Below, in pieces: positions 572 through 23,357 of a stretch of 24,822 nt of DNA. The translations under genes were made by a program, and so were the position numbers. Source of the DNA: a virus (taxonomy: Duplodnaviria > Caudoviricetes); the IMG/VR virus record IMGVR_UViG_3300012041_000061, positions 1-24,822 of that record; one strand, given 5' to 3'. Under the pieces are notes generated by a model. That model saw only the letters and a program-made list of their open reading frames with translations, made no database searches and was not told the origin of the DNA. Positions within the stretch are counted from its first letter, which is position 1, and every line of letters starts with the position of its first letter.

Positions 572-1600
572 CTAGCGGGTGCCGGGGACCTTGAGCTTGC
601 GGTTCCAGTAGCGCGCATGCTCCGCCGCGGACGCCGTGTCACCGGGAGGATCGTCCCCCATGACTGGCGAGCTCCCGACCGGCTGAACCGGGGGCTTCGC
701 AGTGCTGAGTTTGGGCGGCGCGGCTGGGCCGGCCCCATTCCGGGGCGCAGCACGCGGGCCTAGCTGGGATTCCAAGAGACGGCGCATCACGGCGGCAGCG
801 GCGACGGGAGTGTGTTGCGACTCCTCGGCGAGCTGGGTGCACTCCTCGGGATGCGTGGCGAGGTAGTACACGAGGTCGGCGGCCTTGGGCGACTCCGCGA
901 TCGCCAGTTGCATGACGGCCGAGACCTGGAGGCCTAGTGTATCAGCCTCTGTCAAGACCTGATCGTAGTCGGGGTAGTCTTTGCGTCCTTCGGCGAGGCG
1001 GTGCTCGAACGCGGTGGCCTGCACCTTGGCGGCCTGCTCGGCGTCCCACTGCTGGCGCGCCTCGGCGAGCCCCTGCGCGCGGTCCCAGCGGGCCCACGCC
1101 TGGACGTAGGCGGTGTAGGGGTCGGGGGCGTCGGCAAACTGCTCGAACTGCGGCTCGCCGGCGGACCCGTTGGTCGGCGCGCTATACCCCGGCGGTGTGA
1201 CAGGACTGGTCACACTGGGCTGTCGCAACCGCTGGAGCTCGGCCTCGAGCTGGGCGGCGCGCTGCTCGGCCTGCGCCTTCTGCGCGATCGCCTGCTTCAT
1301 GCGCGCGACGGGGTCGTGGCGCGGGAGCGTGTCGTCGCGGCGGCGCGCGGGCGCCGCGGGCTCGGCCGCCGACTCGAGCGGGAGCGGCGCCTCGGCCGGC
1401 GGGGTCTGGCCCTCGGCCTTCGCGAACCGCCCCTGCGGGTCCCGCACCGGCGGCGGGGGCGTCGTGCTCTCGTGCGGCCGGCTGTCGCCGTCCCCCTGCG
1501 GCGCGGCGGGGGTCGTCATTTCGGCGCGCAGGTCGGCTTCGGTCGCCGTGTTACTGGTGACGGTGACGCCGCCCTCGGTGACGCTGACGGTCTCGCCCAT
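572..1600 (-). CDS. Scaffolding protein
   Basis: Lies between portal and coat; low-complexity N-terminus, coiled coil, 'YPDYDQV' and 'DLVYYLATHPEE' motifs typical of P22-like scaffolds; basic C-terminal tail. Confidence 0.85.
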   Translation of the reverse strand: MGETVSVTEGGVTVTSNTATEADLRAEMTTPAAPQGDGDSRPHESTTPPPPVRDPQGRFAKAEGQTPPAEAPLPLESAAEPAAPARRRDDTLPRHDPVARMKQAIAQKAQAEQRAAQLEAELQRLRQPSVTSPVTPPGYSAPTNGSAGEPQFEQFADAPDPYTAYVQAWARWDRAQGLAEARQQWDAEQAAKVQATAFEHRLAEGRKDYPDYDQVLTEADTLGLQVSAVMQLAIAESPKAADLVYYLATHPEECTQLAEESQHTPVAAAAVMRRLLESQLGPRAAPRNGAGPAAPPKLSTAKPPVQPVGSSPVMGDDPPGDTASAAEHARYWNRKLKVPGTR

Positions 1601-3958
1601 TTACAACGGCCCTCCTGGGCCTTGTGGCGGGCCCTGTGGCGCGGGCGGCGCACCCCCCCCCGGCGCGCCCTGCGGCCCGCCGGCGGGCCCCGGCGCCTGC
1701 TGCGCGGCCATCTGCGCCAGGTCCCGCTCCTGCTGCTGCTGCGCCGCCTGCTGGTCCTTCTGGAACGCCTGCGCCTCGAGTTGGTCGATGCTCCGCTGCA
1801 CGCCCTGCAGCGCCACACGGTCGGTCGCGCCTTGCACCCCGAGGGTCGCCTGCTGGAGCGCCGACTGCGCGCTCAGATCGGCCTTCAGGAGCTCGACCTG
1901 CGCCTTGACCGCCTCGATCCGCTCCTTGCTCGCGAGCTCGAGCTGCGTCACCTGCACCTGCGCGTCGGCCTTGACCTGGTCGGTCTCGATGACCTGCGTC
2001 TTCGCCTGGAGCTCCTGCGTGAGGAGCTGGATCATCTGATCGGCCTGCGCGACCTGCTGCTGGAGTTGCTGCACGCTCGGGCCCTGGCCTTCCTGCTCTT
2101 GGAACTGCGGCGGCAGGGTCTTCTTGGCGATGGCGGCCAATTTCTTGGCCCCCGGAAAGTCGAGCTCGTCGAGCCAGAAGGGCGCGAGAATCGGCGCGAG
2201 TTGCGGCGCCACCTGCATGATCGCCGCGATCGCCTCGGACGTCTCCTCGCGGCGGGTCGCGTAGGACTTGCCGACGACCGCGGTCACGCTCAGGTCGCCC
2301 GCCTTCAGGTCGATCACCTCGGCGCCCGGCGTCCCCGGCGGCACGGCCTGCGGCTGCCCGTCCGGTCCCTTCGCAAACGGGATGTTCACCATGAGCGATC
2401 GCCGCTTTTCATCCTGCCCCAGCGCCGGCACGACGCGCCCGGGCCGGTCGTAGATGCGCGGGATGAGGTCCTTGAGCACCTTGCCCTCGTACAGCATGCT
2501 CACGCTGGCGAGGTTGTCGAGGTACCCGCTCGAGCCGACCTCCGCCTGCCCCTGCAGCGCGCGGATCGCGACGCCGCTCCGGTCGTGCGGATCGAGCTGC
2601 CCCAGGGACACCGGCGGCATGTTCGTCGTCCCGTGCAGATCGTCCTTCGCCGCCGCCGCGGCGAGCGTCACGGCCTGAATGGCGGGCTCGGCGACGTTGC
2701 GCTGCGGGGGCGGCGCCGGGCCCCCGCTGTAGGTCGTCAGCCGATACGGCAGATACGGGAGGTTGCGCGTGTTGGCCTGCTGCCACCACGCCTCATAGCC
2801 CTCGAGCTGCCCGTCCGCGATGAGCCACTGCGCGCGGGGCGCGAGGCCCACGGCCTCGACCTGCGCCGAGCGCATGTAGTTGTAGGACTGCTGGGCATCG
2901 CGCGCGAACTGCACGAGCCCCGACCAGCGGCGATCGCCGTTCAGGTTCGTCTCGTCGCCGATGACCGGGATGATCGGGATAAAGCTGCCGTTCCAGTCCT
3001 GCGGCGCGGTCAGCTTCTCGACGCCGTTCATTAGGCACCACTTCACGCGGCGCGCCGTGACGACCGTGCGCCGGGGGAGCGGCGTGCCGCGGTCCTTTTC
3101 GACGGTCGCCAGGATGTCGGCCGGGATCTGCGTGACCGGGATCACGGATTGGTCCGGCAGGAGCACGAGGGTCTCGGTGTCCTCCTCGACCTCCCAGTAT
3201 TCGGCGATCCGCACGCTCGCGCCGGCCGTCCCCGCGTTCGTGCTGATCCAGGTCGGAATGTCGTTCCCGATCGAGGTCAATTCACGGTCGGAGTAGGACG
3301 CGAGCGTCGAGTCGGGGTATTTTTTCTTGTACTGCGAATGCGGCAGGTCCTGCGTGAGAAACGCAAAGGCGCCATCGCTCCAGTCCGGCTCTTGCGCGAA
3401 CGGGTCCAAGTAGACGGCCGCCTGGTTGAGAATGCGCTTATAGGTGATTTTCTGGTCGAAGGTCTGGGTGTTCGCATACTCGGTCAGAATCCGATACGCC
3501 CCGAACCCGCACTTGGCCGCGCGCTCGAACGCCCACTGCCGCGCGATGTGGGCGCGGGAGTCGGCCTGAATCGCCCGCGCGATGTCGTCGTAGGCCTGCG
3601 CGACCGCCTGACTGACGCCCTCGCCCTCGGGCGCGAAGGAGAGCCCCAGCTTCGCCTGCCGCGCCGTGTTGATGACCTGCTGCACGGGCCCGCGCAAGAG
3701 GTTGAACTCCAGGCACGGCCGCGCCGGCACCGGCGGCAGCCCCGAGCCGCCCTCCTGCCCACCGCGGGCCCGCCGGATGTCCTCGGGCCACTGCGCGCCG
3801 CGCTCGTCGACGAACCGCAGGTCCTCGAGCTCGCGCTTGCGCTGCTCCTGCATCGCCTCGTCGCAGAGCTTAAAGCGCTCGAGCGCGGCCTCGTGCGCGG
3901 ACGTGTCGGGAACCTCGGGGTCGGTCGGGGTCTCAGGATAGACGGGGTCGGTCGCCAT
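1601..3958 (-). CDS. Portal protein, P22-like
   Basis: 785 aa; 'GAQWPEDIR', 'RPCLEFN', 'DPFAQEPDWSDG', 'IPIIPVIG', 'ARDAQQSYNY' motifs; C-terminal Gln-rich coiled-coil barrel. Confidence 0.93.
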   Translation of the reverse strand: MATDPVYPETPTDPEVPDTSAHEAALERFKLCDEAMQEQRKRELEDLRFVDERGAQWPEDIRRARGGQEGGSGLPPVPARPCLEFNLLRGPVQQVINTARQAKLGLSFAPEGEGVSQAVAQAYDDIARAIQADSRAHIARQWAFERAAKCGFGAYRILTEYANTQTFDQKITYKRILNQAAVYLDPFAQEPDWSDGAFAFLTQDLPHSQYKKKYPDSTLASYSDRELTSIGNDIPTWISTNAGTAGASVRIAEYWEVEEDTETLVLLPDQSVIPVTQIPADILATVEKDRGTPLPRRTVVTARRVKWCLMNGVEKLTAPQDWNGSFIPIIPVIGDETNLNGDRRWSGLVQFARDAQQSYNYMRSAQVEAVGLAPRAQWLIADGQLEGYEAWWQQANTRNLPYLPYRLTTYSGGPAPPPQRNVAEPAIQAVTLAAAAAKDDLHGTTNMPPVSLGQLDPHDRSGVAIRALQGQAEVGSSGYLDNLASVSMLYEGKVLKDLIPRIYDRPGRVVPALGQDEKRRSLMVNIPFAKGPDGQPQAVPPGTPGAEVIDLKAGDLSVTAVVGKSYATRREETSEAIAAIMQVAPQLAPILAPFWLDELDFPGAKKLAAIAKKTLPPQFQEQEGQGPSVQQLQQQVAQADQMIQLLTQELQAKTQVIETDQVKADAQVQVTQLELASKERIEAVKAQVELLKADLSAQSALQQATLGVQGATDRVALQGVQRSIDQLEAQAFQKDQQAAQQQQERDLAQMAAQQAPGPAGGPQGAPGGGAPPAPQGPPQGPGGPL

Positions 3959-4134
3959 CAGCGGGCCTTCTCCATCTTCGCGATCGTCTCGTCGAGACGT
4001 TTCTCCAGCCGTTTGATGTTTCGGCGAATCGCCGGGCTCGTCCTGCCAGGCGGTAACTTAATCTTTCGCTTCCAGTAGCGGACATGCTCAGCCACCGACG
4101 CCGAATCTGCGGGGGGGCCGCTGGTTCTCGGCAT
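3958..4134 (-). CDS. 58-aa protein carrying a paralog of the scaffold C-terminal motif
   Basis: MPRTSGPPADSASVAEHVRYWKRKIKLPPGRTSPAIRRNIKRLEKRLDETIAKMEKAR; GAGG SD; its TGA overlaps the portal ATG (TGATG); 15/22 identity to the scaffold tail. Confidence 0.8.
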   Translation of the reverse strand: MPRTSGPPADSASVAEHVRYWKRKIKLPPGRTSPAIRRNIKRLEKRLDETIAKMEKAR

Positions 4135-4137
4135 CGG

Positions 4138-4404
4138 CTAGCCTCGGAACCGCTCGCCGGCGGCGGCCTCTTCGACGCGCGCGCGCACGTCGGGGTCGGG
4201 GATGGCCTGCAGCGTCGCGGCGAAGTCGGCGCGCGTGCCCAGACGCGCGAGGCGCAAGAGCTTGCGTATCCGCTCGGGGGTCACCGGCCCGCGCAGGAAC
4301 TTGGCCGCGAGCGCCTCGCGCACTAGGTCGGCGGGCATGCTGTCTCGGGCAGTATCGCACACCCTGTCAAGAGTGACAGCTGTCACTTTGCACAGGATCG
4401 TCAC
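4138..4404 (-). CDS. Hypothetical protein (start GTG 4404 or ATG 4338)
   Basis: Fills the gap in a tightly packed operon; stop lies 3 nt before the next ATG. Confidence 0.6.
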   Translation of the reverse strand: MTILCKVTAVTLDRVCDTARDSMPADLVREALAAKFLRGPVTPERIRKLLRLARLGTRADFAATLQAIPDPDVRARVEEAAAGERFRG

Positions 4405-4942
4405 GGGTTCGCCTCAAAGAACGCGCGCGCAAACCCCTCCGGCGTCACACTGCGTCGCGCCTTCCGATCCGCCGTCGGCGGCAGCCGGTGCATCTTCGAG
4501 CCCTCCGTCGCCACGACGCGCGCCTTGCCGGGCGGCGTGAAGTGTCCCCAGAGAGGAGCGTGCGCTTGGTATACGGGTCGCCGTAGTCAGCCGGATCGAA
4601 GGCCATCTGCGGCGGGCCGAGATACCACGACAGCCGCCCGACCGGGTTTTCGAGGGCCCACCACTTTGGCTGTTGGACCCACGCGACCCGCACGCACGCA
4701 TCCACGAGGCTGAGCGCGGCGAGGAGTGCCGGATCACCCTTCTCGGCCCACCAGCGGGCGCCAGAGCCGGCCAAGTGGGTGCAGTCCGGGGCGGCGAGGA
4801 TGCCCCAGACCCCGGCGCGCGAGCGCTGTATGAGGCGCACGTCCTGCCCCTTGCCCAAATCGTAGACCTCGACGCAGTAGCCGGCCTCGCGATACGGGGC
4901 CGACCACGCGCCCGAGCCGCCGCACAGGTCCCAGATCAGCAC
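4401..4942 (-). pseudogene. Small phage DNA cytosine methyltransferase-like gene with a +2 frameshift at about 4551-4552
   Basis: Motif I 'WDLCGGSGAWS', motif IV 'AAPDCTH', motif VI 'ALENPVG'. After YTKRTLL an extra TC shifts the frame; the shifted frame reads WGHFTPP...RSVTPEGFARAFFEANP* to TGA at 4401-4403. GTG start overlaps the terminase TAG. Confidence 0.75.
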
Positions 4943-6378
4943 TAGCCCATCCACGAGCCCGGCCCGAGCGGGCGCGGCCCACTGGCGGGCGGCTCGCTGA
5001 CCGTGGGCGCCTTCCGCCGCGTCGAGAAGTTGAGCTGCAGATACTCGGCGCAGTTCTGCGCGTGCTCATACCAGCCGTCTTTGCTCGGGTGCCGCATCGG
5101 CTTGTGGTTGACGCTGATCATGTGCGCGTCCCAGACGTAACCCGACTCGCAGCCGTCCGCGTAGAACGGCCACTTGGACACGCCCCGCCGGCTCGAGACG
5201 AGCAACCACCGCGCGTCGTCAATCCCAAACCCCTCGCCGGTCGCCGTGCGCTGCCGCATCGCCTTCGCGAGCTCCTCGATCATCGCGAGCCGCACGTCGG
5301 GCGCGTTGCTGTTGTCCTGAAAATGAATGCGATGGCGCGCCGGGTAGTGTGCGCGCAGGATCTCGACGCCGTTCTGCCGCAGGCCCTGGCTCGACTGGTG
5401 CGCGCCGGCCGGGTCGCAGCAGGTCTTCAGATCGACCACGCCCGGGAACCACTCCTCGCGATACCGCGTGACGACGCGCATAAAGTCATCGAGGAACAGG
5501 TCCTCGCCCTGTACGCCGCCCAGGAACAGCACCGCGCCGAATGGGTCGACCTGCCGCGCGACCCAGCAGGGATGATGCTTGCCGAAGTCGATCGCCTCTT
5601 CGAGCGGGAGCGCGGGGTTGAACGTCAGCGGCCGGACGTGCAGTTGCCGATTGAACGCGCCCGCATACACCGGGTCGCCGATGACGTTCATGCCGCGCAG
5701 GCCGTGGAGCAGCGTCTGCCGCTTGGGGTGCCCGAGCGGGTAGGTCTCCTCGAGGTTGCGGATCGTGTCGGCGTCGAGGTTGTGCGCGTTGTCATAGACA
5801 CTCAGGGGGATGTAGCGCCGATGGGGGATCGAGTTGTCCGCTGGAAATTCGCGACTTATCCAATGAGTCTCCTCCACGGCTTGAGGCGTGATCACGATCT
5901 GATGCGGGTAGCCCTTCTGCGACAGCCGCGCTTTGAGCTCGTGGTACACGTCGCGCGGCATCTCCTCGGCCTGGTCGATGTAGACGCGCGCGAGCGTGAG
6001 CCCGCGGAACTTCGCGTAGCGCGTCTGCTGGTCCTGCGCCTTGAGCCCGCGGATGTAGGCCCGCGCGCCGTTGGGAAATTCGTCGTAGTGCTCCATCGCG
6101 TTCCAGCGCACGCGCAGGCCCGCCTTCTCGAGGATGCTGCGCCAGATCGGTTTGAGCACCGTCTGCATCGCGTCCTCCGTCCAGCGCGCGAGGAGTGTGT
6201 GCATGCCGGGGTGCGCGACGAGCGCGGTGATCTCTTTCCACAGCGCGATCGTGGTCTTCGAGGCCCGTAAGGCGCCTTCCACATCAAGGGCGTGCGTCTG
6301 GTCCGTGAGCGCGTCCCACTGCTTCCCGCGCCAGCGGATCGTGACGGCGCGCTCAGCGAGGGCGGCTTTCGGCATCAC
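4942..6378 (-). CDS. terL: Terminase large subunit
   Basis: Walker A-like EGALRASKT, Walker B-like VYIDQAEE, nuclease motifs 'AIDFG' and 'CDPAG'; upstream of portal. Confidence 0.88.
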   Translation of the reverse strand: MMPKAALAERAVTIRWRGKQWDALTDQTHALDVEGALRASKTTIALWKEITALVAHPGMHTLLARWTEDAMQTVLKPIWRSILEKAGLRVRWNAMEHYDEFPNGARAYIRGLKAQDQQTRYAKFRGLTLARVYIDQAEEMPRDVYHELKARLSQKGYPHQIVITPQAVEETHWISREFPADNSIPHRRYIPLSVYDNAHNLDADTIRNLEETYPLGHPKRQTLLHGLRGMNVIGDPVYAGAFNRQLHVRPLTFNPALPLEEAIDFGKHHPCWVARQVDPFGAVLFLGGVQGEDLFLDDFMRVVTRYREEWFPGVVDLKTCCDPAGAHQSSQGLRQNGVEILRAHYPARHRIHFQDNSNAPDVRLAMIEELAKAMRQRTATGEGFGIDDARWLLVSSRRGVSKWPFYADGCESGYVWDAHMISVNHKPMRHPSKDGWYEHAQNCAEYLQLNFSTRRKAPTVSEPPASGPRPLGPGSWMG

Positions 6379-6779
6379 TAAACCAGTTCACGGGCTGGCA
6401 AAGGAATCGCGCCGACGCTGGCCATGCTGCCATACGGCCACACCTCGCCGCTGGCTTCCCATCGTTGTCGCGTCGCCGCGAGTTCCTCGGCGGTCTGCGG
6501 GCGCCAGAGATGCAAGCAGGTCTGGCAGAGATCCACCTTGCGCCCGTCGTTGATGTGCAACTGCATCACGACCTCGTCGTCCCCAAACACCCGCCGTTTG
6601 ACACGGTCCATTTCCTCCCACGTCGGCAGGCGCCCACGCGCCGACACGCTCACATGGTCCCAACCGGCACCGTCCGATACCCTGAATACCACGGCGCCTA
6701 AGCGAAAGTCGCCGCAGTTCGTGCCGACCGGCCCATTGATCCGCAACTGCTCAAGGCGAACGTTCGGCTCTGACCGCAC
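6378..6779 (-). CDS. Conserved phage hypothetical protein
   Basis: 'GWDHVSVS...PTWEEM..VK...CLHLWRP' signature seen in many phage proteins. Confidence 0.75.
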   Translation of the reverse strand: MRSEPNVRLEQLRINGPVGTNCGDFRLGAVVFRVSDGAGWDHVSVSARGRLPTWEEMDRVKRRVFGDDEVVMQLHINDGRKVDLCQTCLHLWRPQTAEELAATRQRWEASGEVWPYGSMASVGAIPLPARELV

Positions 6780-6780
6780 G

Positions 6781-6999
6781 CTACCTCCCGAACAGCTTCG
6801 CGAGTTGGATCTCTTGACAGGCCCGGGTGCCGATCGTTTCCGCGAGGTCCGGCTTGCCGACGTCGAGCAGCATCGCCGCGAATCGGAACTTATCCGCCGT
6901 CTGGAGGGCGAGCGTCTTCTCTGCTAGCGCGGGCAGATCGGTCTTCGTGCTCGCTTGCTTCACTAGCCGGTGGAGGGTCTTGTCACTCGCCATTTCCAT
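6781..6999 (-). CDS. Hypothetical protein
   Basis: GGAG SD, tight operon packing. Confidence 0.65.
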   Translation of the reverse strand: MEMASDKTLHRLVKQASTKTDLPALAEKTLALQTADKFRFAAMLLDVGKPDLAETIGTRACQEIQLAKLFGR

Positions 7000-7003
7000 C
7001 GCG

Positions 7004-7165
7004 TTACTCCAGTCGCTCCCACGGCGGGGTGAGGAGATCTATGAGTCGTCTCGCGTTCTCGCCGCTGATGATGTGCGCGCCGACACAGTTCGCGAGGAGC
7101 ACGACCGCACTCCGCAGCCGGGTCAGTTCGGCTTCCAGTTCCGCGTGTGTGACCGGATCGGCCAA
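7004..7165 (-). CDS. Hypothetical protein (start uncertain: TTG 7165 or ATG 7204)
   Basis: C-terminal part of track ORF 7004..7357; helical 'THAELEAELTRLRSAV'. Confidence 0.5.
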   Translation of the reverse strand: MADPVTHAELEAELTRLRSAVVLLANCVGAHIISGENARRLIDLLTPPWERLE

Positions 7166-7172
7166 TGACGGA

Positions 7173-7400
7173 TCAGACCTCGGTTTCGTCCTCTTCGTCG
7201 GCATAGCTGCAATCCCACTCGTGGTAGTCGGTGAACAATGAACAGTGGCACTCCGGGCAGTGCGGATCGTCCGCGCACGCGGGGCACCCGCGATCACAGC
7301 GACGGCACCACATGCACTGATGGTCGACACAGAACTCGTGCACGGCTTTGTGGCCATCGAAGTCCTGGCACCAGGGATCGCACGCCTCCTCGCACATCAC
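7173..7400 (-). CDS. Cys/His-rich acidic small protein, probable metal binder
   Basis: 13 Cys in 75 aa including CxxC pairs; starts 3 nt after the terS stop. Confidence 0.65.
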   Translation of the reverse strand: MMCEEACDPWCQDFDGHKAVHEFCVDHQCMWCRRCDRGCPACADDPHCPECHCSLFTDYHEWDCSYADEEDETEV

Positions 7401-7403
7401 CCT

Positions 7404-7982
7404 TCACCCCTTCTCCTGCTGCATCACGATCCGCACGGGCAGCGCCGCGCCGTCGGGCGTCCCGATCTGCAGCTTGAGCAGGCCGAGATGCTGCGCGAGC
7501 GTCTTGAGCGCCTCGACCTTCGGCGCGAGCTTGATCTTGTGGATGTACTCAACCTCGCCCTCGTCCACCGTGCGCGTCGCGACCTCGACGCCGACGACCG
7601 CGCTCGCGATCGCCGCGTCGTAGTCTTTCGGCTGTTTCAGGCGCCCATCGGGATCGAAGATGCGCCGCACGTCCGCGTACGCGACGTGCGCGAGCTCCAG
7701 CAGCACGCGCTCGGCCGTGATGTCACAGCGCGCCTGCAACCGCGCCAGCGCCGTCTGCACGGCCGCCTTGACCACAGGTTTTAACAGGTTCTCGCTCGCC
7801 ATCTGTTGCGCGGACGCCGCCGGGTAGCCCGCGCGAATCGCCGCCTGTGTGCCGTTGTAGTCGACGAGGTATTCCTGAATAAAGCGCGTCTGCTTGGTGG
7901 TCAGCGGCCGGGGGGGCGCCGTCTCATCGACCATTTTCCCGCGCTCGGTAATATGGTGTCGCCCGTCCGTCTTATCCGTCAC
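7404..7982 (-). CDS. terS: Terminase small subunit (start possibly ATG 7934)
   Basis: 'LTTKQTRFIQEYLVDYNGTQAAIRAGY...ASENL.KP' and 'KVEALKTLAQHLG' Terminase_2 signatures. Confidence 0.92.
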   Translation of the reverse strand: MTDKTDGRHHITERGKMVDETAPPRPLTTKQTRFIQEYLVDYNGTQAAIRAGYPAASAQQMASENLLKPVVKAAVQTALARLQARCDITAERVLLELAHVAYADVRRIFDPDGRLKQPKDYDAAIASAVVGVEVATRTVDEGEVEYIHKIKLAPKVEALKTLAQHLGLLKLQIGTPDGAALPVRIVMQQEKG

Positions 7983-7994
7983 TGTGGGCTTTCC

Positions 7995-8231
7995 TCAATG
8001 CACCCGCCCCCCGCGCGGCACGATCGGCGGGAGCGTCCCGTTGAGGCGGATCAGCGCGTCCGAGAACGTCGTCGCGCTCAGCCCGTCGAACACCGCCGCG
8101 AGGAGCGCCACCAGATACTGCCGGCGCATCGCGTCGGTAATCTCGAGCGCGTCCTCGCCCGCGTGCGCGCGCAGGATCTGGTCGAACCCGTCGGGCAGGC
8201 GCAGGCGAATGGTGTGCTCGCGCGTCGTCAT
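7995..8231 (-). CDS. Hypothetical protein
   Basis: GGAGG SD before ATG 8231 (MTTREHTIRL...). Confidence 0.6.
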   Translation of the reverse strand: MTTREHTIRLRLPDGFDQILRAHAGEDALEITDAMRRQYLVALLAAVFDGLSATTFSDALIRLNGTLPPIVPRGGRVH

Positions 8232-8444
8232 CGGTGCCTCCACGTATCCAAGCCGGACGCGGCTTGTGTTCATCGTCGTAACAGGGCCGACGCCGTCGCC
8301 GTGGCTTCTCCCAACCACACGGACCCAGAATTAGATGTACCTTGCGGTACCAACGGCGCCGGCCCATTCGGTTCGCGATCGGCGGTCATGTTCGGCGATC
8401 GCCTGGTGGTAGCACGGTCGACCACAGGGGATGCTCGCAAATCG

Positions 8445-8873
8445 TCAGACCTCCCTCACGTAGATCCCATGAATGTGCTCGGCGAACGTCTTACGTAACC
8501 GATACGCCTCGGTTTTCGTCACGTCGCTTTTGACGTCCTCGACCACGATTTCCCCGACGGCGTACACGCCGCGATCGCAGTAGCGAAAATCCGCGGTGAA
8601 CCGGCCCGCCGTGAAGACCACGAGCGGCGACCCCGACCGCCAGATCTCCATGACGTGCAGCGGAAACACCGGCTGGCACTCCAGGTCGGCAATGAGGCCC
8701 GCCTTCTCGAGCAGCCGGAGCTCGAGGTAGCGCGCGGCCTCCTTGCGCGACGCGAACCGCACCCCGTCGACATGGACCGGGATGGCGTGGTACTTGTTCG
8801 CCGGCGGCTCGCCGTCGACGAGCAGGCCCTCGCGCGCGGCGTAGGCCGTCCACGACTCCGCCCGCGCGCTCAT
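8445..8873 (-). CDS. DUF1064-family PD-(D/E)XK endonuclease
   Basis: 'NKYHA...VDGVRFASRKEA.RY..L', 'ADFRY', 'VVEDVKS', 'YRLRK'. Confidence 0.85.
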   Translation of the reverse strand: MSARAESWTAYAAREGLLVDGEPPANKYHAIPVHVDGVRFASRKEAARYLELRLLEKAGLIADLECQPVFPLHVMEIWRSGSPLVVFTAGRFTADFRYCDRGVYAVGEIVVEDVKSDVTKTEAYRLRKTFAEHIHGIYVREV

Positions 8874-8898
8874 CGCCGCCACAGTAGAAGTGTCCCCG

Positions 8899-10296
8899 TC
8901 ACACGTACCGCCCCCGGAGCGCCCGCCGCACGCCCAGGACGTGCCCGCGCACGACATACGCCGCCATCGTGTCCGCGCGCCCCGGCACGGACCAGCTCTG
9001 CCCCGCCGCGAGGTCGGTCTCGACGACCGTCTGATGCGTCAGCGGGTCGATCGCCGCCACATGACACGCGCGCGCCGCCGTGCCGGCCGGCACCGGCCCG
9101 ACCGCCTGGATGCTCTTGCACCCGGTGAGCATGACGACGAACTCCGACCCCGCGATCGCCGCGTAGTTCTTGTTCACCGCCGGCGCGACGTCGTCCGCCC
9201 CGCCTTCCCAGAACCCCTCATGCGGGTCGAGCGGCAGCGGGTGATCGCTCCGGCCGTTATTCACGACCTTCCAATTCTCGACGCCGAGCGGCAGCAGCGG
9301 GTCCGCGGCGCGCACACTGCGCATGATGGTGTCGATGTTCGGGACCTCCCACATGTTCGCGGGCCGGCCGTAATCGGGACTCGCGATCCCGAGCACGCCC
9401 TGCCCGACGTGGAGCACATACCCGGCGCCGCCGCACAGGATGCCGAGGAGCCGACAGCAGACCAGCTGGAGCGGGTCATCCATTGACACGACGCTCGATT
9501 GCGGCCCCTCGGGCTCGTTGTTGAAGACGGCGCCGGGGAAATCCTTGAAATCGTACGCCTGTCTGACATGGCTCCAGCCGTGATCGTGGCTGCTCCGCCG
9601 GGGGTGCAGCGTGAAGCTGTTCGCGCCGGCCTCGGCGGTCGCGAGCTTCATCGCGCCGTAGCCGCTCACGGGCTCGGCCTTGTCCTCAGCCAGCCACTGG
9701 TCGAGCGTGACGGCCTCCTCGCGGGCGCCCTTCGGCCGGGACAGCGCGACCAGGTTGGGCGTCTGCGCGACGACGACCTCGGCCATGTCGACGAGGTCGT
9801 CCATCGAGACCTTATCGAGCCGGTCCCACTCGTTCGCGCACTCGTAGTGCAGCACCTTGTGCTCGGCCCCCCGCAGGGCGTCGGTGACCTGGCGCGCCAG
9901 CTGCGCCGGGACGAACCGCCGCGCGCCGGTGTACTTGTCAAACTGCCGGCCGCCGACGATCGTGAGCTCGGTGCGCAGGCCGTACTGGTCATAGGCCGTG
10001 TCGACGAACCCGCGCAGGATGGCCGCGTAGTCGGGCCAGCTCGGCTCGATGCTCCGGCCCTTCCAATCGACCTCGCCGAGGATGCGCACGTAGTCGAACG
10101 CATGCGAGGCGAGGAACTCGAGATGCTCGACGACGCGCGCGCGTTCAAACTTCCAGCCGTAGAGCGCCCAGAAGAACGTGACGCCCAAGGGGTGGAAGAC
10201 GCCCGTATCGTCGCCGATCACGTGATGCGCCGCGCGCACCAGGCCCTCGCGCCGGATGGCGGTCGCGGGCGAGCCGTCGAGCAGGAGCAGGCTCAT
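8899..10296 (-). CDS. Putative clan GH-A (TIM-barrel) glycoside hydrolase-like protein
   Basis: 'FDYVRILG', 'YECANEW' (acid/base), 'TLHP', 'VFNNEP' (nucleophile), followed by a beta-rich C-terminal domain. Confidence 0.65.
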   Translation of the reverse strand: MSLLLLDGSPATAIRREGLVRAAHHVIGDDTGVFHPLGVTFFWALYGWKFERARVVEHLEFLASHAFDYVRILGEVDWKGRSIEPSWPDYAAILRGFVDTAYDQYGLRTELTIVGGRQFDKYTGARRFVPAQLARQVTDALRGAEHKVLHYECANEWDRLDKVSMDDLVDMAEVVVAQTPNLVALSRPKGAREEAVTLDQWLAEDKAEPVSGYGAMKLATAEAGANSFTLHPRRSSHDHGWSHVRQAYDFKDFPGAVFNNEPEGPQSSVVSMDDPLQLVCCRLLGILCGGAGYVLHVGQGVLGIASPDYGRPANMWEVPNIDTIMRSVRAADPLLPLGVENWKVVNNGRSDHPLPLDPHEGFWEGGADDVAPAVNKNYAAIAGSEFVVMLTGCKSIQAVGPVPAGTAARACHVAAIDPLTHQTVVETDLAAGQSWSVPGRADTMAAYVVRGHVLGVRRALRGRYV

Positions 10297-16526: not shown

Positions 16527-16555
16527 TTGACATTGCGCTGCCGCTAGCGCATACT
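16527..16555 (+). promoter_or_regulatory. Sigma70 promoter
   Basis: TTGACA-17 nt-CATACT. Confidence 0.8.
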
Positions 16556-19766: not shown

Positions 19767-21994
19767 GGCGTCGCGGGCTCAGGTTCCTCGGTCACCGCCG
19801 GCACCAGCGCCGGCCGGGCCTCCGTGATCGCCCGCTCGAGCGAGGCCGCCCACGCCGCGCGCGCCGCTTTTGCGCCCACCGGCAGCCGCAGGCCATTGAG
19901 GAGGAGGCGCGTCGTCCGCGGCGACAGCAGCAGCTTCGCGACCACTGGCGCCGCCAGCGTGTAGTTCAGCCCCACCCCACTCATCAGCGCCGTGCCTTCC
20001 GCGCCCTTAAACGCCGTCAGCGCCGTGCCGCTCGGGTTGGGATTCTCGGCGAGCTTTTTCGCCAGGAGGAAAAAGTGATCGAGGTCCTTAATGTGTGCCG
20101 CATCACGGAACAGCAGGAGCTTGGTCTGCGACCCGAGCGCCTGCCATTTTGCCTGTAAGCCCTGCGCCCGACTAAACCCGCCCTCGGCGGTCGCCGTCTG
20201 CAGCAGGTCCTCGAGAAACGCCCGACCCACGAGTGGCAGACTCTCCGGCGCCTGTCGTTGGAGGTCCCGCAGGAACCCCGCCGCCGCGTCCTTCTGCGAG
20301 GTCGCCTTCCGAAAGACCCCGACCCCTTCCGGATGGAGGTCCTCCAGAATCGCGCCCGCGACGTATTTCGCCCGCGTCGCCGCGCGCCCGGTCTCGAGCG
20401 CCCGTAAGACCTCCGGCCCCGCCGCCGTGGCCGCGTTGCGCACCTGCCTGTCCAAGTGCTTGACCGCCAACGCCGCCGCCCCTTGTCCCGCCGTCCGGAG
20501 CTCCGGGATGTCCGTGCGGGCCATCGACTTCAGATCCCCGAGCGCCGCATCCACGATCGACAGCGGGGCATGATCGCCAGCGGTCATCAAGGTATCAAGC
20601 GCGACGAGCGCACGCGCCTTCGTCCCCTGCAGCACATTGGTGAGCTTCCGTTCCCGGGTGAGCCGATCGTAAAGCGGCTGCAGCGCCGCCTTCGCTGGCC
20701 GGAGGTCGACGGGCAGCTTCATCACGACATCGACCTGCCCAGCCCCGGGCGGGAGAATCGGGCTCGAGATGTCCTGATACTTCCAGCCCCCCTCGGCGAG
20801 GCGCTTTTTCGCGACCGCGAGCGCCCCGCGGGCCGCGTTGGTCAGACGCCCAGTTCGGAGCGCGAGCGCGATCGAGCGCTGCACCTCGGCGCGCGTCATG
20901 TTGGAGGTGCCCGGCGCCGCCTGGAGGATGTCGTCATAGACCGGCGCCCCGGCGGCGCGATGCACGTAGTGTGTGTCCACGTCACTATCGCGGACCAACT
21001 TGCCGGGCTGGAACGGCACCGCGTCGAGCTCTTCGTAGATGCGCCGCAGTTCCTGGATCTCCGCCGGGGCCGGGAGCTCCCCGCCCAGTTCTTTCCGCAG
21101 CCGTTCCTTCACGGGCGTCGGCAGATCCTCGGGCACATAGTCCGCATGGAGCAGGTTCTCTTCCGCCGTCCGGAGTTGCCCGTAGGCGACATCGGCCTCC
21201 TTCGCATGCTGTTGCACCGTTCCGCGCACGCCCTTCCGCACCGCCTCGCCCGCGAGCTCCGGTGTCGTGGCGGCGCCCGGCGCCGTGCGTTCCGCGAGTT
21301 GTGCGCCTGTGGCCTTCAGCGCCGTCGCTTGCGCATCGCGCGCCCGCCGGCCGATGGGACTCCCAAGGAGCGACTCTTCGGCGAGCCGCTGCGAGCCCCG
21401 CAGGAAGGTGTTGCCGGTCGCCGTCGCGACATCCACCGGCACCCCCTGCCGCATCCCCCACGCGACCGCCTCGCCCAAAGGGTCGACGGCCGCGCGCGCG
21501 AGCTTCGGCACGATCGGGACCGTCGCGCCCGCGGGGTAGGCTTTCGTGATGACGCTCGGCAGCGCGATCTGCCCGAGGAGACCCGTCGCCTCGCCCAGCG
21601 CCCCCGCGACATCGTCGCCGGCGCGGATGCGCTCGCCGAGCGCCGTGGTCGCCGGCCCCAGCGCGGGCAAGAGTCCCGCGACGGTATACGCCGCGGCTTT
21701 CTCGTAGTCCCCCTGCCGATAGAACTCCCGCGCCTTGTCGAACTGCTCCCCGGCCGCGGTCGCGAGCGTCTCCAGCGTGCGCCCGACCGCCTCGGGACTC
21801 TTCACCGCCTCATAGAGCCCCGTGAGAATCGCCACCGGGTTGGAACTCTTCCAGAGGCCCGCGCCGTACCGCGCCGGCGCACTGCCCTCCTCCGCCGGGG
21901 CGGTGCCCGCATGCGGATCGGTCGAGAGATAGCCCGACGGGGCCACTGGGCGCCCCGCGTTGGGGTCGGTCGAGAGGTATTCATCGGGCGGCAT
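19763..21994 (-). CDS. Ejection/DNA transfer protein (gp16-like position)
   Basis: 743 aa, Ala-rich and helical; duplicated 'YLSTDPxAG' at the N-terminus; third of the ejection genes. Confidence 0.65.
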   Translation of the reverse strand: MPPDEYLSTDPNAGRPVAPSGYLSTDPHAGTAPAEEGSAPARYGAGLWKSSNPVAILTGLYEAVKSPEAVGRTLETLATAAGEQFDKAREFYRQGDYEKAAAYTVAGLLPALGPATTALGERIRAGDDVAGALGEATGLLGQIALPSVITKAYPAGATVPIVPKLARAAVDPLGEAVAWGMRQGVPVDVATATGNTFLRGSQRLAEESLLGSPIGRRARDAQATALKATGAQLAERTAPGAATTPELAGEAVRKGVRGTVQQHAKEADVAYGQLRTAEENLLHADYVPEDLPTPVKERLRKELGGELPAPAEIQELRRIYEELDAVPFQPGKLVRDSDVDTHYVHRAAGAPVYDDILQAAPGTSNMTRAEVQRSIALALRTGRLTNAARGALAVAKKRLAEGGWKYQDISSPILPPGAGQVDVVMKLPVDLRPAKAALQPLYDRLTRERKLTNVLQGTKARALVALDTLMTAGDHAPLSIVDAALGDLKSMARTDIPELRTAGQGAAALAVKHLDRQVRNAATAAGPEVLRALETGRAATRAKYVAGAILEDLHPEGVGVFRKATSQKDAAAGFLRDLQRQAPESLPLVGRAFLEDLLQTATAEGGFSRAQGLQAKWQALGSQTKLLLFRDAAHIKDLDHFFLLAKKLAENPNPSGTALTAFKGAEGTALMSGVGLNYTLAAPVVAKLLLSPRTTRLLLNGLRLPVGAKAARAAWAASLERAITEARPALVPAVTEEPEPATP

Positions 21995-23357
21995 TCGTCA
22001 CCGCCTTCCAGCCCTTCCCGTCCCATTCCGCGAGCTGGCCGTTCACGGTGCGTCGCTCGCCAACCTTGGGCCCCGGGACCCCAGCGGCCGACGGTGCGGG
22101 CGTCCCGCGCGGGGTGTACTCCCCGCCGGCCACGCGCAATGTGTTCTCGCGCTTCGCCGTGATGAAATCCGAGAGCGAGCTCAGTTTGGCTTTAATCTGC
22201 AGCACGCTGTCGGTCGTCGTCGGCGTGTAGCGGTCGAGCATGATCTGCTCGCTCGGCGTAAAACTCGCGCCCCCGCGCAATTTGGCGATCGTGCCCTGGA
22301 TGTTCCCGAGGAGGTTCCGGAGACGTTCCGGCTCTTCGCCTCCCACGCCGAGCCACTTGGCCCCCGCCGCGCCTGTGCGGCCGGCAATCGGCCCGACGCC
22401 CCGCCATTTAATCCGCTCCCCGAGGTTCAGCGCTTCCTTCCCCAGGTCCTGCACCGTCAGCATGGTCGCAACATCTTCCTGCTGCCCCGCTGTCAGCTTG
22501 AGGCCGCCTTCTGCCCCGCCCGCGGCGCTCCCGGGCGTCATCCCTAGCGCCTGGCTTTCTCGCACGTAGATCGGTTTCCCATCGGGCCCAATCACCGAGA
22601 CGATCCGCTCGTCGCGAGGCGCGGACGGTGTTCCCGGCACGGCCGCGATCTGCTCACCCCCCGGCCCGAACCGCACCGAGCCCGGCGAAAGCGTGAACTG
22701 CTCCGTGGGCGACTCGCGCGGCGGGCCCGCCGCAATCTGCTCCCCACCGGGCCCATAGCGCACCTGCCCCGGCCCGAGCGTGAACCCCGCCTCCGCCGCC
22801 GTCCCCACGCGCGCCAGCGCGCCCGCCGCGAACTGCTGGAGCGCCACCGACCCGTCGCGGTCGATCGCGTCGAGGAGCTGATCGGCCAGGGCGGCGGGGA
22901 GCGCGCCGATCTGCTTCGCGGCGCCAATCTCCAGCCGGCCGAGGTCGGGGTCAAACTGTTGCGCCGTCAGGCTCCGCGCCGTCCCCGCGAGATACTCCGC
23001 CCGCTTCTCGGCGGCGGTGAGGTTGGCCGTCTGGGTGCGCGCCATGCGCTCGGCGTTTTCGTCGAAGACTTTTTTGACCTCGAAGAGCACGGCGGGCGGG
23101 AGCTGCCGCCCGAGCGCCTTCTCATAGTCGAACGTCGGCTGCTTGGTCACCGGGTCCAGGCTGATCCCTGCGGCGAGCGCCTGCTCGATCTGCGCGTCGC
23201 GGGCGCGCTTGGCCTGCGCGTCGGCCGCGGCCGCCGTGCGCTCCTGGGCCTGCGCGCGCTGCCCCTGCAGCTGGAGCACCTGCGCGTAGGTCTCGAGCAC
23301 CGACGGCCCCGGCGCGGGCGGCCGAATCGACAAGGGGATGGACGGATCAATCGGCAT
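21981..23357 (-). CDS. Ejection/DNA transfer protein (gp20-like position)
   Basis: 'MPIDPSIPL' start; two 'FTLxPGxVRxGPGGEQIA' repeats. Confidence 0.7.
   Translation of the reverse strand: MPIDPSIPLSIRPPAPGPSVLETYAQVLQLQGQRAQAQERTAAAADAQAKRARDAQIEQALAAGISLDPVTKQPTFDYEKALGRQLPPAVLFEVKKVFDENAERMARTQTANLTAAEKRAEYLAGTARSLTAQQFDPDLGRLEIGAAKQIGALPAALADQLLDAIDRDGSVALQQFAAGALARVGTAAEAGFTLGPGQVRYGPGGEQIAAGPPRESPTEQFTLSPGSVRFGPGGEQIAAVPGTPSAPRDERIVSVIGPDGKPIYVRESQALGMTPGSAAGGAEGGLKLTAGQQEDVATMLTVQDLGKEALNLGERIKWRGVGPIAGRTGAAGAKWLGVGGEEPERLRNLLGNIQGTIAKLRGGASFTPSEQIMLDRYTPTTTDSVLQIKAKLSSLSDFITAKRENTLRVAGGEYTPRGTPAPSAAGVPGPKVGERRTVNGQLAEWDGKGWKAVTNAAR

Follow-up and report, generated by a model that had tools for sequence, protein, structure and literature searches.

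A 58-residue phage gene upstream of the portal repeats the scaffold tail motif: a possible dispensable mini-scaffold

The window analysed here, a 24,822-nucleotide stretch comprising positions 1 to 24,822 of IMG/VR record IMGVR_UViG_3300012041_000061, comes from a tailed-phage genome represented by that single contig. Between a small gene, orf66, and the gene for a P22-like portal it carries a 58-codon open reading frame (ORF), which we call ORF58, whose product repeats the C-terminal tail of the phage's own scaffolding protein and continues into a predicted basic helix (Table 1). The copy has diverged conservatively and persists in a second intact allele. ORF58 is real and unusual, but rare, and its function can be proposed from sequence. 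We favour, at a probability of roughly 0.45, a young, dispensable mini-scaffold that would compete at the coat's scaffold site and tune procapsid assembly.

The first-pass annotation had pointed to a 15/22 match with conservative differences, and this match holds up. ORF58 residues 7-28 agree with scaffold residues 318-339 at 15 of 22 positions (18 of 22 positive; pairwise BLASTP E 2e-10), and all seven substitutions score at least 0 in BLOSUM62. ORF58 gets a score of 95 from the scaffold tail in a six-frame comparison over the window's own record, and 12 shuffled tails reach 43 at most. The matched DNA is identical at 49 of 66 bases, distributed as 19, 19 and 11 of 22 over the three codon positions; five of eight fourfold sites differ, and the proportion of synonymous differences (pS) is 0.59 against 0.15 for non-synonymous differences (pN; Fisher p 0.0013). 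Because of these three patterns, we consider the likeness to be held at the protein level rather than left by a fresh duplication. When the phage's own tail was decayed at random in 200,000 simulations (144,956 runs without a stop), an all-conservative outcome arose 278 times. The tails of loci L032 and L037 (L-numbers label the related loci compared with the window) match ORF58 at 16 of 22 positions, one more than the phage's own tail, so that the co-variation with the own scaffold tail anticipated at first pass is not seen.

The shared motif is the conserved C-terminal helix and basic hook of a large scaffold family of the P22-coat type. We took 99 distinct candidate scaffolds upstream of coat genes and dropped six wrong picks; 55 of the remaining 93 have the His-centred tail form. 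A profile of these 55 tails, built with the own tail in and ORF58 out, scores ORF58 at 30.2 bits (E 5.5e-7 in 2.0 million residues), inside the range of true tails, while the reversed-sequence null peaks at 16.1. ORF58 carries the C-terminal signature of the family, namely a Pro/acidic run, an S-x-x-[ED]-H helix start, an aromatic residue and a basic run, and it retains the commonest residue at P7, P8, D10, A12, S13, A15, E16, H17, R19 and Y20. Over the 12 residues from the His, its net charge is +5, compared with +4 in the own tail and +3 to +5 in nine other tails, and AlphaFold2 places the ORF58 and scaffold helices in the same register. In the scaffold model, a long disordered linker leads to a tail that forms one helix (pLDDT about 70-78), which departs from the P22-like helix-turn-helix assumed in the first-pass annotation. 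Foldseek with the scaffold model returned the P22 scaffold 9kyx_A as its top row (E 0.11, probability 0.95), with three further P22 scaffold entries listed. PF09306 matches one of 20 aligned scaffolds, at E 0.014 and below cut-off. The window scaffold had no match among cultured phages, and profile searches against solved chains turned up no relevant hit, whether for the tail motif or for the scaffold. A 29-residue called protein, P0017, recorded on 24 contigs, equals the tail end of the L119 scaffold and may be either a fragment from gene calling or the product of an internal start.

On the side of the coat, D14 is invariant in all 17 aligned coats, and the basic hook is present in ORF58; a contact between the two is suggested by analogy. 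The contig end truncates the window's coat; the full-length coat of L045 (914-2149) is identical to it over the available 173 residues. By estimate, some 3,200 viral stretches match the coat patterns. The closest solved coat chains are 6mnt and 8skg (chain pair, E 6e-6 and 1e-4), which we take to be the CUS-3 coat.

The tail motif also recurs within scaffolds. In 65 testable proteins (core motif found, body of at least 200 residues, 500 shuffles each), a copy of the scaffold's own tail lies near the N-terminus in nine at p <= 0.01 and in 11 at p <= 0.05. The nine (L072:8982-9968, L073, L085, L124, L132, L134, L136, L146 and L163) are relatives, not independent events, and their N-terminal copies have lost the basic run, with charges of -1 to +1 versus +3 to +5 in the tails. 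The window scaffold has no such copy (p 0.63).

ORF58 itself is intact on the minus strand, and the plus strand of the same interval is not open, being interrupted by a stop. A GAGG at 4145-4142, inside the 3' end of orf66, precedes its ATG by 7 nt, and its TGA stop shares one base with the portal ATG, the overlap reported earlier. Under a codon model built from core genes, its frame ranks first of six; the GC content at third codon positions is 0.75, and its accessory-type codon use resembles that of other accessory ORFs of the window. The basic amphipathic helix described after the motif is present in the AlphaFold2 model of ORF58 (mean pLDDT 80). It is basic (pI 11.3; K/R 16 versus D/E 6) and of modest amphipathicity, its moment being reached by 4% of shuffles; this helix is a possible dimerisation element. 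Pfam gave no family for ORF58 at E <= 0.01, Foldseek with the ORF58 model returned zero rows, and a VIA structure search peaked at Z 5.1 with generic helical hairpins. Among four public read sets, one of which may be the window's own source, two freshwater-sediment runs span ORF58 fully, one partly and one not at all. A contig of run X1 covering window positions 3648-4256 has the window's letters at 4010 and 4018 and L054-type letters at 4135-4171, a mixture pointing to recombination around ORF58.

A second intact allele is found in L054 and L039, where the head module is 92% identical to that of the window and the DNA upstream of about 4340 is unrelated. The alleles differ at five bases: three changes are synonymous, all in the motif, and two are replacements, both in the second helix. 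Between alleles, pS is 0.07 in ORF58, 0.26 in the portal gene and 0.24 in orf66. With pS below that of the flanking genes, ORF58 has therefore moved recently between lineages.

The slot between orf66 and the portal is hypervariable, holding unrelated small ORFs, methyltransferases or nothing in relatives. At six of the 17 close loci without ORF58, some stop overlaps or abuts the portal ATG; this coupling thus belongs to the slot, and the special portal link drawn at first pass is not supported. In L060 (2150-2329), the ORF immediately ahead of the portal has 59 residues and opens with a coat N-terminus copy (25/27 nt) that retains an acidic residue at the D14 position. Its coat-start score is 55, and the other short ORFs among 5,567 score at most 22, except the split true coat start of L068; a scan for the L060 start returned eight true coats and L060 itself. 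A 290-nt insert, possibly an intron, interrupts the L068 coat gene (8158-8543) some 32 codons from its start. In L062 (5792-6001), a 69-residue ORF before the portal starts with a copy of the portal start (20/21 nt). Both the L060 and L062 ORFs are single-member clusters. Two further small ORFs beside the portal resemble the coat insertion-domain region: L078:4956-5369 (60.5 bits), a 137-residue ORF upstream of the portal that resembles coat residues 242-320, and L013:7319-7807 (28.1 bits). These slot copies cut both ways, as a route to functionless chimeras that also has the look of repeated recruitment of interface peptides.

The mini-scaffold reading can be set out as a mechanism. ORF58 would be produced together with the head genes, by way of the ribosome site in orf66, no terminator-like site having been found between ORF58 and the head genes (weak consensus scan). 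Its first helix and RKIK hook would bind the coat N-arm near acidic residue 14, like the scaffold tails of P22 and 80alpha, and its second helix would pair two copies or grip the shell. By taking a share of the scaffold sites, ORF58 might shift nucleation rate, scaffold loading or shell curvature; it could not replace the scaffold, because it lacks the scaffold's oligomerising body. Coat binding by the scaffold tail and by ORF58 is proposed on grounds of homology and analogy. In P22, scaffold residues R293 and K296 bind coat D14, E15 and E18 (PMC12005531). With a P22 scaffold fragment that lacks the oligomerising body, coat still assembles into particles that are abnormal (bioRxiv 10.1101/2022.12.13.520362), so such a fragment is not inert. 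The earlier idea of a second coat-binding peptide is reasonable, because the motif is repeated at the protein level, the basic hook is kept, the gene lies in the head operon and a second allele is intact. The reading also leans on the synonymous nature of all motif changes between alleles and on the natural occurrence of N-terminal tail doubling in scaffolds.

Several results weigh against this reading. ORF58 is rare. The count was made on those 20 of the 23 distinct close portal starts that offer 300 nt or more of upstream sequence; ORF58 occurs in three of these (the window's own record, L039 and L054), is absent from the other 17 and from L176, and is known in two alleles in all. The conserved small ORF that the first-pass annotation expected upstream of the portal in relatives is therefore not what we find. 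No other free-standing relative surfaced in searches of 5.8 and 1.84 billion proteins or with DNA patterns. The codon score is -0.025, against 0.25-0.43 in core genes, and at least nine residues follow the hook, whereas scaffold tails stop there. The constraint signal that a dN/dS comparison was to provide is present against the scaffold tail; between alleles, the split of synonymous and replacement changes (3:0 in the motif, 0:2 in the second helix) is not significant (p 0.10). The conservative pattern is subject to two caveats: its conservative nature is what brought the match to light, and a donor scaffold could already have held the seven changes. Finally, other slot ORFs likewise begin with short copies of head genes, and that of L062 looks like a plain insertion duplication.

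A DNA pattern that allowed both versions of the motif gave 15 hits in viral loci (14 scaffold ends and one chance hit) and 24 distinct loci in metagenomes, 20 with the scaffold end only and four with ORF58, two of them the window's own record. Neither the 85 candidate stretches in viral contigs nor the 18 in GTDB genomes yielded a confirmed ORF58. Three word-indexed searches, covering proteins of up to 102 residues with longer fused forms outside their scope, confirmed one of one candidate with the single sequence (ORF58 itself), two of 15 with a 10-row alignment (the second a scaffold fragment) and five of 1155 with a 28-row alignment, where the four others end at the motif, like scaffold ends. 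On 1.84 billion proteins, phmmer returned five rows: ORF58 itself, one at E 4e-13 and three weaker. The four other rows are repeat proteins (simple repeat, TPR, Myb and DUF3606) and were rejected as summed weak repeats. Assignment of ORF58 to DUF3606 was likewise discarded: a three-repeat DUF3606 protein appeared at E 7.5e-5, but ORF58 itself gives no hit to the PF12244 model up to E 1. The ESM Atlas gave a best score of 0.76, which is uninformative, and the best matches in cultured phages and plasmids (E 3-8) are at chance level.

The most serious competing account is that ORF58 is a by-product of recombination: the slot captures short DNA, including head-gene ends of related phages, and ORF58 would be a translated chimera whose motif is useless. 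The 17 close loci with different unrelated ORFs or nothing in the slot, the coat-start and portal-start copies of L060 and L062, the low between-allele pS as a mark of recent spread, and the atypical codon use all suit it. Against it, none of the scaffold ends at 14 viral and 23 metagenome loci has the V18/K22 form of ORF58, though the pattern allowed it, so that no direct donor is known; moreover, all seven changes are conservative, the frame stays open, and the motif protein sequence is identical between alleles. We hold this account to be doubtful, if well worth keeping in view. An improbable alternative is a decoy, in which the scaffold-tail mimic titrates a satellite protein or host immune sensor directed at the scaffold, or masks the matching coat site. 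Patchy occurrence in a fast-turnover slot suits arms-race genes, the slot of L060 holds a coat N-arm copy with the acidic residue, and a review describes immune escape through scaffold or capsid mutations and Avs receptors that bind many structural proteins (PMC13728456). Yet the receptors treated in that review recognise folds, not short peptides, expression with the head operon would come late for a decoy, and neither a sensor or satellite nor a host was identified.

The motif could instead be a capsid-targeting tag that brings the basic helix into the procapsid, making ORF58 a minor protein of the head interior, bound to DNA or leaving with it at ejection. Cargo fused to residues 141-303 or 238-303 of the P22 scaffold becomes packaged, and truncated scaffold that is cationic is retained (PMC9962691); the pI of 11.3 would fit; but those fusions place the cargo N-terminal to the tail, the reverse of ORF58, and the second helix is only 24 residues long and took both amino-acid changes between alleles. 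We regard a tag as quite improbable. Less probable still is the role in portal recruitment or nucleation offered at first pass, in which ORF58 would bridge portal and coat to begin assembly. The stop overlapping the portal ATG invites it, and P22 scaffold hooks sit between portal and coat (PMC12005531). Absence from most close loci does not fit an essential role, however, and the overlap is a property of the slot; P22 portal contacts involve largely the base domain and C-loop, together with residues 229-238, all lying outside the hook (PMC12005531; bioRxiv 10.1101/2022.12.13.520362), and ORF58 has no counterpart of these parts. A lysogen-expressed exclusion gene (moron) was also considered and rejected, as no sigma-70 promoter or terminator was seen at 3800-9000 in a consensus scan, which is weak in GC-rich DNA.

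The proposed mini-scaffold has its closest parallel in SaPI1 CpmB (gp6), a small helical protein of 72 residues that, as ORF58 does, shares a helix and basic hook with a full-length scaffold (PMC5644958). CpmB competes with the 80alpha scaffold through this shared helix-and-hook, which binds the coat N-arm (PMC5644958), and competition for coat is also the mode proposed for ORF58. The differences are substantial. CpmB is encoded by a satellite, whereas ORF58 lies between terminase and portal in the head operon of a phage that itself carries coat, scaffold and ejection genes; the CpmB motif is C-terminal, after a dimerisation domain, whereas that of ORF58 comes first and its helix after. CpmB works with CpmA and has been shown to make small capsids (PMC5644958); for ORF58, an effect on the shell is a proposal. 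No sequence match between the two was detected. Judged by its phage origin and reversed topology, ORF58 is not a member of the CpmB type.

The P22 gp8 system is similar in its P22-type coat and portal, in gp8 as the top fold match of the scaffold model and in the acidic coat residue 14; the RKLK of the window scaffold and the RKIK of ORF58 resemble an RKLK that has been cited for the P22 scaffold (PMC5644958). It differs in that the gp8 C-terminus is a helix-turn-helix, whereas the window tail is one helix in the model, His-centred and without a PF09306 match, and the papers covered describe no free-standing tail copy for P22. In the 80alpha scaffold, as here, a flexible linker leads to a short amphipathic helix and then a basic-hydrophobic hook (PMC5644958, Table 2). 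The L-A-E at the start of its helix also occurs in the tails of L012, L019, L032, L037 and L053, but 80alpha is a Staphylococcus siphophage with another coat family, and the likeness, seen by eye, was not found in the solved-structure profile search. Phage P1 encodes DarA and Hdf, extra internal head proteins that have been proposed to contribute to scaffolding and to bias the size of the head; these are large, retained in the virion and tied to anti-restriction, and no scaffold-tail copy is described for them in the available text (PMC12810830).

The head module runs in the order terminase small and large subunits, methyltransferase-like ORF, orf66, ORF58, portal, scaffold and coat. The phage, from sediment, is GC-rich (69%) and carries an integrase-family gene; a 3-kb contig in a Burkholderiales bin and a distant contig in a Patescibacteria bin, both from GTDB, were rejected as host evidence. 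Upstream of orf66 lies a promoter-like element (Table 1). Of 19 close loci, 12 have a TTGACA/hexamer pair with the same 8-nt spacing in the 1.3 kb that precede the portal; none of 19 portal-body controls has one. The spacer is 9 nt shorter than that of sigma-70. From this pattern, the element is possibly an activator-dependent late promoter and likely the start of the head transcript, in which case ORF58 would be co-made with portal, scaffold and coat. The gene orf66 heads the head cassette and has relatives in 14 viral loci; many relatives also have a conserved basic ORF of 50-60 residues near orf66, which the window lacks. Two canonical promoter-like sites (TTGACA, 17 nt, hexamer) lie on the plus strand at 16527 and 17384, in a presumed control region. 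The DNA-methyltransferase-like ORF at 4445-4954 (minus) matches phrog_757 over positions 16-171 of 247; the match stops at residue 143, and the ORF looks frameshifted or truncated. A large ORF at 21981-23357 (minus), beside a DNA-ejection gene, contains an internal repeat of ~100 nt. Elsewhere, in L082 (9420-9899) and L123, scaffold and coat are separated by an additional ORF whose motif is presumably like that of LAGLIDADG homing endonucleases.

Table 1. Positions in the window of ORF58, the head genes around it and their parts.
Feature	Position	Strand	Remarks
ORF58	3958..4134	minus (4134 -> 3958)	intact 58-aa basic accessory protein
ORF58 scaffold-tail copy	4051..4116	minus	residues 7-28; predicted helix 14-24; basic RKIK 23-26
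ORF58 second helix	3964..4035	minus	residues 34-57; predicted basic amphipathic; no homologue found
Portal, P22-like	1601..3958	minus	PF16510 E 9e-133; ATG overlaps ORF58 stop
Scaffolding protein, 342 aa	572..1600	minus	phrog_8865 E 5.6e-18
Scaffold C-terminal motif	584..649	minus	residues 318-339; predicted helix 325-336; RKLK 334-337
Coat, first 173 aa (cut by contig end)	1..519	minus	PF11651; acidic residue 14 in N-arm
orf66, conserved 66-aa small gene	4138..4338	minus	precedes variable slot; no known family
Promoter-like element	4351..4387	minus	16-bp palindrome 4387-4372; TTGACA 4370-4365; 8 nt; GATACT 4356-4351

A wider proposal, which we think somewhat unlikely, is that the pre-portal slot mints small modulators or decoys by copying interface peptides of the phage's own head proteins: the coat-binding tail of the scaffold in ORF58, the scaffold-binding N-arm of the coat in L060 and a piece of the coat insertion domain in L078. 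ORF58 would then be a phage-encoded analogue of CpmB, tuning how the phage's own capsid assembles or blocking a host sensor or a satellite, and the N-terminal scaffold tail copies would be a second, undescribed doubling of the same site. The literature covered, with most subscription papers outside it, yielded no phage-encoded free-standing scaffold-tail copy. Scaffold-tail mimicry has so far been known as a trick of satellites against their helper phage. If the mini-scaffold reading is true, a phage would direct such a peptide against its own coat, and capsid assembly would be tuned or shielded by small accessory genes. The peptide has 58 residues, coat and scaffold are sequenced, and all three can be expressed in E. 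coli, which makes for a simple test. A widespread His-centred scaffold-tail motif emerges from the survey, and its recurrence at the N-termini of scaffolds bears on the question of second coat-binding sites in these proteins. Even as a mere recombination scar, ORF58 would still document the birth of a gene from pieces of structural genes.

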